Source: an uncultured Roseivirgaceae bacterium (GTDB lineage Bacteria > Bacteroidota > Bacteroidia > Cytophagales > Cyclobacteriaceae). From it: 64,000 nt of DNA. The stretch lies in assembly GCA_964393115.1 (NCBI GenBank), contig CAYMST010000001.1, positions 213 through 64,212 of the forward strand. Reading direction: 5' to 3'. The notes under the pieces were generated by a model. The model was not told the origin of the DNA. It ran no database searches and saw nothing but the letters and a program-made list of their open reading frames with translations. Both the position numbers and the translations under genes were made by a program. This document shows positions 50,931 to 64,000 of the stretch, in pieces (the stretch's first letter is position 1; every line of letters starts with the position of its first letter).

Positions 50931-53900
50931 TTATTTCAATATAAGCCTTATATTCTTTCTCAAGTTGCCAGCACTAATGCGGACGGTATAGGTACCTGAT
51001 GCTAGTTCATTTCCGAAGCTTAATGATTCATTCATTTCCCCTTGCGCATCCGAGATATGGGTACTAGATAGTACCATTCTACCAAATAGATCAAATACTT
51101 CTACGTTTACGCGCTCAGCGGCATCCAGATTTATTCCTCTTAAGCTTAGTGTTCGCTCCGTAGAAGGGTTCGGGTAAATACTAAATTCCGAATCCGACCC
51201 ATTATCTTTTCTCATACGAATCATGATGATATCGGAATACTCAAATTTCCCGTCAAAATCTACTTGCTTCAAGCGGTAATAATTGGCACCGATCAACGGA
51301 TTTCTGTGCTCAAAAGAATAATCTGTTTCGAACGAAGTTGTTCCTTGGCCTGTCACAGTACCTATTCGCTCAAAATCCACACCATTTACCGAATAATGTA
51401 CCTCGAAATAGTCGTTGTCAAGCTCACTGGCCGTTGTCCAGTCCAGCATCACATTATTGCCGTCAGCATACCCTGTGAAGCTACTCAACTCTACAGGGAG
51501 CCCTCCATCACTTGAGCCATGGGCAGCAGGGGAGAATGATGTCCATGGAGTAGAGGAAGTAACCGAACCTGCCGTTTGATTTCCGGTGTAGCTTCCGTTT
51601 CCTTCATCCTGCCAGGTTCCTCCAGTGTAGTGCGCTACACTCATCACAGCAGGATTTGGAGCAAAACTAGTCGCATCCCAGAATAAGGTTACATAAGGGT
51701 GACCTCCATGACCATTGACATTGGATAGATCCCAGTACTCAATAGCACTTACGTGTGTCATCCCTCCACCTTTTGGCTGACCTCTATTTGGGTGTGGCGT
51801 ATGGAAGAATTCAGAGCTATATTCATCAGTATTTGAAGGGCTACCTTGAATATTGGATATACCTAATCTAGCGATTCTGGCACCATCTCCTATTGGGAAT
51901 ATAAAATCATCATCTCCAATCTTATGCACAGGACCGACTACATAACTGTTTCCGTCAACATCCGTCCCCGGGAACGTCATAGGTGACGTTTCCTCTGCTC
52001 CGTCAAATGATACAGTAGCACCGTCATTGAATGTAAGTGGATTAGAAGAGGAAGCTCTCACAAGCCCAACCAGGAAATTAACATTGTTGTTAATATTAAT
52101 GTCGGTCCCCAGTTGAATATCGCTATTACCAGCGGCAGTATTACTGATGACCAAATTATCTAAAGAAAACTCAGAGACGTTTCCTGTGATGACCTGTATG
52201 GCGGTTCCATTGAAAACCACTGTACTAGTACCACCAGAAACATCAATCGTACCATCCACATCAAAGTTATTTCCACTAAACTCAAGGTGTTTATCACCCA
52301 ATGCGAACGTTACACCGGCCCCTATAGATAAGTCACCTTGCACGCCCAAAGAATCCAATAGTGTTTTGGTTCCGGTACCGGACAGCGTTACGTTATTTAA
52401 CGTAATATTGGTGTTCTCTGAAGCACTACCAATGTTTTGGCTAGCTCCATTGAACGTAACAGTCGATAAATTATCAATAAATGAACCGTTCGTGTCATCT
52501 ACGACCAAGTCTCCACCCACAGTTGTGGTATGAGATGGGTTAAGCACCTCATAGACTCCATCTAAGATAGTAAAGTCATTTTCTACTACCAATGCCGAAG
52601 AACTGGTGAATCGTACACCAGCACCTGTTCCGGCACCATCTATGATCAGGTTATAGAAGTTACCACCGCCTGATATGGTCACGTTCGCATCAGACGAAAG
52701 TGTTGTAGTTGACGTTCCCGGGTCAAATGTTCCATTGTTTGTCCAGCTATTTCCAACGGATACCGTACCACCACTTATGATAATAATGGTCCCATCATTA
52801 GTAAGCTCATCCACTACCGTAAGCGTCTCATCATCATAGATGGTCAATACTCCTCCAGATAGTATGGTTAAACTGGCCGTATTACCACTACCTGTAGAAC
52901 TATTGATTACCGGCATTGGATTAGGACTTACATTAGGAATTCGTACTGTATTGACACTAGAAGGAATTCCATTATCCCAGTTTGCTGCATTATTCCATAA
53001 GCTGTCTGAAGCACCGGTCCACACCGTTAACGGATTCGTATAGGTCCATCTTATCTCTCCTGTTGAAGCACTGCCATCATCTAACTCTAAAGCCTCACCT
53101 GATGCGGCCCCTTGAGCATCTAAGAAAATGAGGTTATTCCCAGCTCCTTCATTTCTTCTAACACTATTAGTAGGACCGGAGTTGAACGTGAGATTAGTTG
53201 CAGTAATATCAGAAGCAAAGGCGTTACTAGATCTTAGGTAGTAAGAAGCACCGCTTCCCTGGTCAAATATTCCGTTATCCAAGCCTTCAAGTACAGATCC
53301 AGCTTGTAACCATAAACCTTCATTGTCGATGAATTCAACTTTGAAGTGGTTAGCCAGGAACCTTCCTCCTGATTTAACCGTGAAATCGTACCTTCCAGTA
53401 ACATTCGTTAACAAAGCAGTATTCGCTTGATCAGCGCCGGTTAATCTGAAATCACCACCACCCTCGACGCTAAAGTCAACATCGTCATCAAGCGAAACGG
53501 TCTCGTTTGCCCCAACCCATAGGGTATCGTAAATCCGAACGGCATCTTGAGTACCATCGTCATTACCTATGGTCAAGTTGTAACCATTTAAGTCTAACTC
53601 ACCTTTGATAAGGCTGAAGTCATGAGAGATCACCAAGTTGTTTCCTAAATCATACTCTACATCATTTCCTAATGCCTGACCAATGACTAGGTTATAGAGC
53701 GATGACGACCCAGGGTCAAACGAAATTGGAGTTGTAGTTGATGATGGGATAAGACTAATGGTTTGGGTTTTCGCATTCAGCGTTCCAGCGTTCGTAAATG
53801 TACCTCCGAGCGTCATATCATATGAGGATAAATCCAGTGTTCCACTATCGATAGAAAAACTATTGGTAACCGAAAGGTCACTAGCTAACGATACTGTTCC

Positions 53901-64000: not shown

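Follow-up and report, generated by a model that had tools for sequence, protein, structure and literature searches.

We analysed a giant gene carried on the minus strand of a 64,000-nucleotide stretch of DNA (hereafter the window, i.e. positions 213-64212 of contig CAYMST010000001.1, designated C1) from an uncultured member of the Roseivirgaceae. The encoded protein of 4,476 amino acids (aa) is probably a static, non-enzymatic surface fibre or adhesin, exported via the T9SS (type IX secretion system) of this marine Bacteroidota bacterium. We infer its secretion, anchoring, length and adhesive or binding role from a type A sorting domain at the C-terminus, from five modules predicted to fold as beta-solenoids and from a set of colinear orthologues. 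The family is uncharacterised yet already present in databases, and the giant protein is a further member of it; somewhat unusual is only its fixed architecture of five modules, which is kept across orders.

Extent and integrity of the gene

The open reading frame (ORF) listing of the window gave a minus-strand frame of 4,355 codons, free of stop codons from position 50931 up to where the window ends. A first-pass annotation, made from the window alone, had accordingly announced a frame of more than 13,070 nt, cut by the window edge and coding for more than 4350 aa. The full gene, retrieved from the contig as this annotation had proposed, confirmed the truncation, and the protein is only slightly larger than this bound: the frame extends 121 codons beyond the window to an ATG at window-equivalent position 64361, which places the end of the gene 361 nt outside the window. 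It spans 13.4 kb (C1 51143-64573), is complete with an ATG start, contains neither Ns nor internal stops, and encodes a product of 471.5 kDa. No DNA tandem repeat was detected along these 13.4 kb with Tandem Repeats Finder. The longest internal direct DNA repeats are 38-48 nt long at 63-82 % identity, and no near-identical internal repeat was found. Judged by its sequence, the gene is real and intact.

Sorting domain and secretion machinery

The end of the protein (aa 4395-4476 of 4476) passed both models of the type A sorting domain, i.e. TIGR04183 (35.7 bits, cut-off 23) and PF18962 (29.3 bits, cut-off 27), which are the only curated family matches in the whole protein. In a six-frame search of the genome the same tail scored 44.5 bits, and the C-terminal profile matched the solved type A C-terminal domains (CTDs) 8glk_D and 8glj_D. 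The CTD was modelled by AlphaFold2 (AF2) as seven strands (model residues 1063-1146) with a predicted local distance difference test score (pLDDT) of about 75-86. The type B models TIGR04131 and PF13585 gave no match to the protein at E-values up to 1. The Por-type (type A) tail recognised in the first-pass annotation therefore holds at curated cut-offs, the proposed comparison of type A and type B hidden Markov models being decided for type A, and its caveat that the CTD might fail T9SS models does not apply. Within aa 1-4390, no catalytic or other family was matched in Pfam or NCBIfam, and neither a two-partner secretion (TPS) domain nor a C-terminal autotransporter barrel was found in these databases.

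At the opposite end, the N-terminus (MRIQSTYTFVTSCLVLLLSAQYVGA) resembles a Sec signal peptide, with n-, h- and c-regions recognisable by eye. In the orthologue alignment this signal-like segment is the least conserved N-terminal stretch (18 % identity), and the next stretch, 'TTY.S.GSG.F', is conserved.

The genome encodes SprA (2,009.8 bits), PorU (1,156.1 bits) and PorV (452.3 bits), all above cut-off, the PorV gene adjoining the PorU gene on contig C38; a PorQ-like protein scored 217.7 bits, just under the cut-off of 220. According to the route that we propose, the Sec signal peptide would direct export to the periplasm, where the T9SS would recognise the type A sorting domain; the protein would then pass through the SprA translocon and be handed over to the PorV shuttle, and cleavage of the tail by the PorU sortase would lead to static fixation at the surface or to release. 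The lumen of SprA has been described as about 70 Å wide and passable for folded substrates (bioRxiv 10.1101/2024.01.29.577165), and we suggest that a solenoid rod could pass SprA lengthwise. The periplasmic handling of such rods poses the same question for all giant T9SS cargo, not for this gene alone.

A second, divergent PorV/PorQ-like gene (363-aa frame) was also observed on contig C122 (C122:135-6156), directly upstream of a PorU-like frame of 1,680 aa that scored 158.8 and 97.1 bits, far under the PorU cut-off. This pair may represent a paralogous shuttle and sortase beside the canonical PorU-PorV.

Type A tails on giant cargo

The first-pass annotation regarded a type A tail as anomalous on cargo of this size, an opinion that the evidence does not support. 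Across the whole genome, the type A cut-off is passed by 148 frames (median 868 aa), among which 59 reach at least 1,000 aa and 10 at least 2,000 aa; the giant gene is the largest of them, at about five times the median length. The type B cut-off is passed by three frames, the longest of 1,613 aa, and all secreted frames of at least 2,000 aa with a recognised tail are type A. Furthermore, PF18962 is borne by dozens of relatives of 4,300-7,300 aa. Finally, SprB of Flavobacterium johnsoniae (6,497 aa) was still efficiently secreted when given the type A tail of RemA or AmyB, and then, rather than travelling along its track, either stayed immobile at the surface or was released (PMC12618676). The authors of that work concluded that type A tails employ PorV, a shuttle that can be recycled, and destine a protein for static anchoring or release (PMC12618676).

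No fewer than five other large cargo proteins of the genome (encoded on contigs C98, C78, C132, C57 and C148) share with the giant protein, at 26-30 % identity, a C-terminal cassette of about 500 aa, composed of a solenoid end, an unnamed beta-sandwich (domain X), an FN3-like domain and the type A CTD. This shared cassette has no Pfam model and looks like a reusable basal stalk.

Two further observations concern the secretome. The best type B tail of the genome (54.1 bits) also lies in the window, on the minus strand at about 9252-9488 (C1:9464-9700), at the end of the 1,613-aa frame. With 148 frames past the type A cut-off and 70 open frames of at least 1,500 aa, the genome has an unusually large secretome of big proteins.

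Composition

Five residues (G 12.3, T 11.0, N 9.4, S 9.2 and D 8.2 %) jointly make up 50 % of the protein. Lysine accounts for 1.07 % (0.17 times a crude proteome background), arginine for 2.57 % and cysteine for 0.20 % (0.26 times), and 527 acidic residues face 163 basic ones, i.e. a net charge of about -360. These counts agree with the first description of the protein as rich in G/N/T/S/D and poor in Lys, Arg and Cys. The composition is indeed extreme, as had been stated, but it is not unique, being a trait of the orthologue family and recurring in several other giant frames of the genome. Frames comparably lysine-poor and G/N/T/S/D-rich were noted on C142 (3,964 aa), C132 (2,924 aa) and C98 (2,943 aa), among others. 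The Bacteroidota O-glycosylation motif D(S/T)(AILVMT) is not enriched in the protein (22 observed versus 28.7 expected).

Modular architecture and predicted structure

Five super-modules (M1 to M5) were delimited by four W-x-G-x5-W-x4-N-W junctions (Table 1). Their mutual identity is 25-36 %, and their divergence is ancient. Of the short repeats initially described, what stands is the existence of these five diverged super-modules, but there are no DNA tandem repeats, and residue autocorrelation of the protein gave neither a sharp periodicity nor a clean rung period.

For piecewise modelling of the protein, AF2 was given alignments of 24 and of 27 segments from orthologues, obtained by translation of the fetched loci. 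M3 (aa 2530-3360) was modelled with a pLDDT of 91.5 and a predicted TM-score (pTM) of 0.75, and the C-terminal part (aa 3330-4476) with a pLDDT of 86.5 and a pTM of 0.48. The M3 model consists of 51 % strand and 1 % helix, distributed over 92 strands of median length 4, and this short-strand pattern is the one expected of a beta-solenoid. None of the fold matches of M3 in the PDB (Foldseek) was significant, yet all were parallel beta-helices, i.e. EtpA, IgA1 protease, HK620 tailspike, HxuA, Ag43, VacA p55, PL6 lyases, Hap, HMW1 and CBM89, and the top matches in BFVD were phage 'parallel beta-helix repeat' proteins (E-values of 3e-8 to 1e-6). The M3 profile had no match among PDB sequences. The beta-helix-like build suspected from the sequence is thus supported by all-beta, short-stranded models and by fold matches of M3 to beta-helices only.

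The C-terminal model places M4, M5, a low-confidence linker, domain X, an FN3/Ig-like sandwich and the CTD in this order; when compared with the PDB (Foldseek), it matched FN3 arrays and PorU at E-values of about 1e-5. The 'LDW...YYRLKQVDFDG' domain, which had been noticed ahead of the tail, corresponds to a discrete seven-strand beta-sandwich of FN3/Ig-like type (aa 4290-4383). Pfam searches with the excised junctions, domain X and the FN3-like domain returned nothing significant, and domain X had no PDB sequence match either.

The junctions were compared with known families through the orthologues. The G8 domain (PF10162) matched nowhere in the giant protein, whole or segmented, and its cut-off (22.9 bits) was passed in two orthologues, P0029 from Sediminitomix flava (33.9 bits) and P0058 (27.4 bits), in three stretches each that cover profile positions 1-65, i.e. 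only the first half of the model. The N-terminal part of Amnionless (PF14828) falls on the same stretches, with 37.9 bits in P0029 (cut-off 30.4) and 28.3 bits, just below the cut-off, in P0058; at the M2 junction of the giant protein it reached a sub-threshold 13.9 bits. The best G8 stretch of P0029 aligns to aa 3795-3863 of the giant protein, at the M5 junction, and the four W-motifs of P0029 align with the four found here. We read the junction as a putative G8-like N-terminal cap that would restart the solenoid, formal membership in G8 having failed.

The protein would then consist of five beta-solenoid rod modules in series, each starting with a G8-like W-x-G...W...N-W cap, followed by a basal cassette of unnamed beta-sandwich, FN3-like domain and sorting domain, and M1 is presumed to be the distal part of the fibre. 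End-to-end stacking of the modules would give a rod estimated at about 70-90 nm, assuming about 27 aa per rung and a rise of 0.48 nm. The invariant columns of the orthologue alignment are nearly all G, W, F, N, Q, P or Y, with W, G, N and P invariant at the junctions, as expected for a scaffold.

Orthologues and distribution of the family

A word-indexed protein search retrieved 72 relatives. Fourteen of them share 54-60 % identity with the giant protein over 99-100 % coverage and measure 4,464-4,502 aa; the named organisms among them belong to Ekhidna and Reichenbachiella, and the sole name given to these proteins, where there is any, is 'T9SS type A sorting domain-containing protein'. Further relatives (30-39 % identity, 4,300-4,900 aa) come from Cyclobacteriaceae, Sediminitomix flava, a 'Chlorobi' metagenome-assembled genome (MAG) and Calditrichaeota, among others. 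A genome scan located 67 loci, closed chromosomes included (e.g. OZ245848.1 and NZ_OZ245746.1), and the isolates carrying the gene comprise Reichenbachiella versicolor DC003, Flammeovirga aprica, Flammeovirga sp. SJP92 and Breznakibacter xylanolyticus DSM 6779. Each of the 41 loci inspected held a single intact frame, 4,300-8,300 aa long.

Junction positions are near-fixed at about 1,390, 2,550, 3,360 and 3,790, M1 being about 1,000 aa longer in Bacteroidales. Identity to the giant protein is spread evenly over its length (0.5-0.68 in close relatives), highest in M3 and lowest in the CTD and the first 300 aa. The module layout and the junction spacing (about 1,150, 800 and 435 aa) are equal across Cytophagales, Bacteroidales, Chitinophagales and Chlorobiota-labelled MAGs at 26-40 % identity. 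This constant spacing at low identity, together with even conservation over 4,400 residues, raises the tentative and on balance unlikely idea of a family of fixed-length structural rods in place of generic sticky fibres, acting as a molecular spacer or ruler or as a defined part of an undescribed surface apparatus. Under this idea the invariant NFP[ST]GF...DQxI motif, present in three copies, could be an assembly or ligand site.

With M3 as query, the gene proved patchy within the family defined by GTDB, being present in 6 of 60 other sampled genomes, one per genus. The M3 profile, run against 1.84 billion representatives, gave 16,657 matches at E-values of at most 1e-3 and 2,290 at E-values of at most 1e-30, and many of the matches are giants with 10-39 matched stretches. 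About 97 % of the length of each family protein lacks Pfam coverage. On the strength of these profile matches, the rod module belongs to a very large family so far without Pfam coverage.

Genomic context

Two genes neighbour the giant gene. A Crp/Fnr-type regulator (cNMP-binding and HTH_Crp_2 domains; C1 65029-65742) lies on the same strand, 456 nt upstream, and is not conserved beside orthologues. Downstream, a gene for a TIR-domain protein (PF13676, 54 bits) runs in the convergent direction, and 522 nt separate its end from the stop codon of the giant gene. The ORFs flanking the giant locus have no counterpart in the flanks of 27 orthologous loci, and no PorP/SprF/PorE-like shuttle gene stands next to the giant gene. 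The lack of any conserved or PorP/PorE-type neighbour fits a cargo of the general PorV/PorU route and lends no support to a functional tie with the TIR module.

Conserved operon partners were sought in the same 27 loci and rejected, as only the closest relatives show synteny, and the genes concerned are absent beside the giant gene studied here. In these relatives, two genes of unknown function coding for proteins of 605 aa and 157 aa lie upstream and RsmE downstream. Both products appear as exported proteins of no known family, and their genes, on the same strand as the giant gene, stand immediately upstream of it, their stop and start codons overlapping. The genome studied here carries homologues of the 605-aa protein on other contigs (C370 and C15).

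Besides the weak hairpin listed in Table 1, a strong terminator-like hairpin was observed on the minus strand at window positions 50312-50338 (12-bp stem with six G-C pairs, T-run), about 600 nt past the stop codon of the giant gene and within the terminal part of the plus-strand TIR gene. Window positions 50413-50427 hold a GGGAG/CTCCC palindrome.

Table 1. Features of the giant gene and its 3' flank, in window positions
Feature	Position	Strand	Basis
Part of the gene inside the window (aa 122-4476 and stop codon)	50931..64000	-	ORF listing, contig translation
ATG start and signal-peptide-like segment (aa 1-25), outside the window	64287-64361 (window-equivalent)	-	
Super-module M1 (aa 26-1374; aa 122-1374 in window)	60240..64000	-	Internal similarity
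Super-module M2 (aa 1375-2542)	56736..60239	-	Internal similarity
Super-module M3 (aa 2543-3348), best-conserved module; NFPSGF...DQTI and ARYY motifs	54318..56735	-	AF2, conservation profile
Super-module M4 (aa 3349-3780), predicted beta-solenoid	53022..54317	-	Internal similarity, AF2
Super-module M5 (aa 3781-4122), predicted beta-solenoid	51996..53021	-	Internal similarity, AF2
Junction W-x-G-x5-W-x4-N-W (aa 1375-1389)	60195..60239	-	Motif
Further copies of the junction	56691-56735, 54273-54317, 52977-53021	-	Motif
Domain X, unnamed beta-sandwich (aa 4139-4284); FPIGDG, EYWDL and VTLFWD motifs	51510..51947	-	AF2
FN3/Ig-like domain 'LDW...YYRLKQVDFDG' (aa 4290-4383)	51213..51494	-	AF2
Type A C-terminal sorting domain for the T9SS (aa 4392-4476); motifs YPNP, GTYTV and K-rich end	50934..51188	-	TIGR04183, PF18962, AF2
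Weak terminator-like hairpin, 33 nt past the stop codon	50884..50898	-	Consensus scan only

Comparison with known systems

The giant protein resembles type A cargo such as RemA of F. johnsoniae in its signal-peptide-like N-terminus and terminal seven-strand sorting domain, in a host equipped with SprA, PorV and PorU, and in the lack of a dedicated shuttle gene nearby, the expected fate of such cargo being static attachment or release (PMC12618676). It differs from RemA, described as having a lectin domain (PMC12618676), by its five predicted beta-solenoid rods devoid of any recognised functional domain.

The characterised giant adhesins of the T9SS, SprB (6,497 aa) and the grappling hook GhpA (5,898 aa), are exported surface filaments of the same size class, but both are described as built from Ig-like repeats (bioRxiv 10.1101/2024.01.29.577165; PMC12618676). 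The tail of SprB is of type B and a cognate shuttle gene, SprF, goes with it, whereas the giant protein has a type A tail and no partner gene; GhpA is encoded beside PorP- and PorE-like genes, unlike the giant protein. Identity with GhpA was considered, as a paper on Ekhidna mentions this protein, and rejected on account of its Ig-like repeats and PorP/PorE partners, and the candidates found in Ekhidna have type B tails.

Among other bacterial adhesins, EtpA, HMW1, Hap, Ag43 and HxuA are long, acidic, non-enzymatic parallel beta-helix rods involved in adhesion, and they provide the best, though weak, fold matches of M3. In contrast to these TPS and autotransporter adhesins, the giant protein has neither a TPS domain nor a barrel, depends on another secretion system and shows no detectable sequence similarity to them; the TM-scores are 0.27 or lower. 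A precedent for a glycan-binding rod is CBM89 (7jvi), a non-catalytic parallel beta-helix from a Bacteroidota MAG, where it is one of the domains of a GH10 xylanase (PMC8810776); it differs by having 14 turns and sitting in a xylanase, and its fold match with M3 is weak (E-value 1.2, TM-score 0.32). As for G8 and Amnionless, the likeness resides in the junctions of P0029 and P0058, which pass the G8 cut-off, the giant protein itself remaining sub-threshold.

Weighing of alternative explanations

Several points weigh against a static, non-enzymatic fibre. The fold matches of M3 in the PDB are weak (best E-value 0.19, TM-score of 0.27 or lower), what looks like a Sec signal peptide was assigned by eye and alignment only, no ligand or binding site was identified, with no role assigned to the most conserved motif, NFP[ST]GF...Y...DQxI (three copies), and the beta-helix can also be the fold of a glycan-cleaving enzyme. 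The main rival derives from this last point: the protein would be directed at glycans, either as a giant polysaccharide lyase or hydrolase or as a multivalent carbohydrate-binding scaffold capturing algal or particle polysaccharide. Enzymes of the PL1/3/6/9, GH28 and CE8 families adopt a beta-helix, the weak fold matches include PL6 alginate lyases and the xylan-binding, non-catalytic CBM89, and the named hosts include the marine polysaccharide degraders Flammeovirga, Reichenbachiella, Saccharicrinis and Breznakibacter xylanolyticus. Nevertheless, no Pfam match of the carbohydrate-active enzyme, Beta_helix or pectate-lyase type appeared even at E-values up to 1-10, the PL6 and CBM89 fold matches have E-values above 1 and TM-scores of 0.32 or lower, and the invariant columns hold no acidic or basic catalytic constellation. 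Neither a polysaccharide utilisation locus nor SusC/D was found among the annotated genes beside the locus, and no neighbour is conserved across the compared loci. We hence consider a glycan-directed protein unlikely, while keeping it as the foremost competitor of the static fibre.

A mobile gliding adhesin of SprB type, carried on the helical gliding track, would account for the similar size class and the identical secretion system, and the hosts include Flammeovirga and Chloroherpeton, which are gliding bacteria. This explanation is nonetheless very improbable given the type A instead of type B tail, the absence of an adjacent PorP/SprF-like shuttle gene, and the behaviour of SprB in F. johnsoniae, where a type A tail leaves it immobile or released (PMC12618676). 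The beta-solenoid body predicted here also departs from the Ig-like repeats of SprB and GhpA. At least as improbable is the functional link to the adjacent TIR cassette envisaged in the first-pass annotation, in which the fibre would serve as phage receptor or decoy. Phages often take long surface fibres as receptors and the TIR gene lies close by, its end being those 522 nt away from the giant stop codon. The 27 orthologous loci, however, share no flanking gene with this one, and no TIR gene occurs among the conserved neighbour clusters; the two genes are convergent and hence not co-transcribed; and conservation is even, with the N-terminal 300 aa mildly more variable, unlike arms-race diversification. 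The least probable of all, to the point of being barely conceivable, is an assembly artefact or a decaying gene. Such an error could be feared in a fragmented assembly (453 contigs), but the 13.4 kb lack Ns, stops and tandem or near-identical repeats, and a junction-bearing intact frame of 4,300-8,300 aa was found in 40 of the 41 related loci inspected. The junction spacing is equal in orthologues of about 4,300-4,900 aa, closed chromosomes among them, and relatives are 54-60 % identical across 100 % of the length. The artefact or interruption that the first-pass annotation had allowed for has thus not come to light so far, intact colinear orthologues existing in closed chromosomes and the DNA being non-repetitive.

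Significance

As a probable static, T9SS-exported surface fibre with a type A tail, the giant protein corrects the rule of thumb that restricts giant T9SS cargo to type B tails. The analysis further documents a large unnamed family whose architecture shows a rigidity unusual among giant surface proteins. Carriers in culture are available for functional study, i.e. Reichenbachiella versicolor DC003, Flammeovirga aprica, Breznakibacter xylanolyticus DSM 6779 and Sediminitomix flava, and the possible roles of these rods include attachment to particles or algae.

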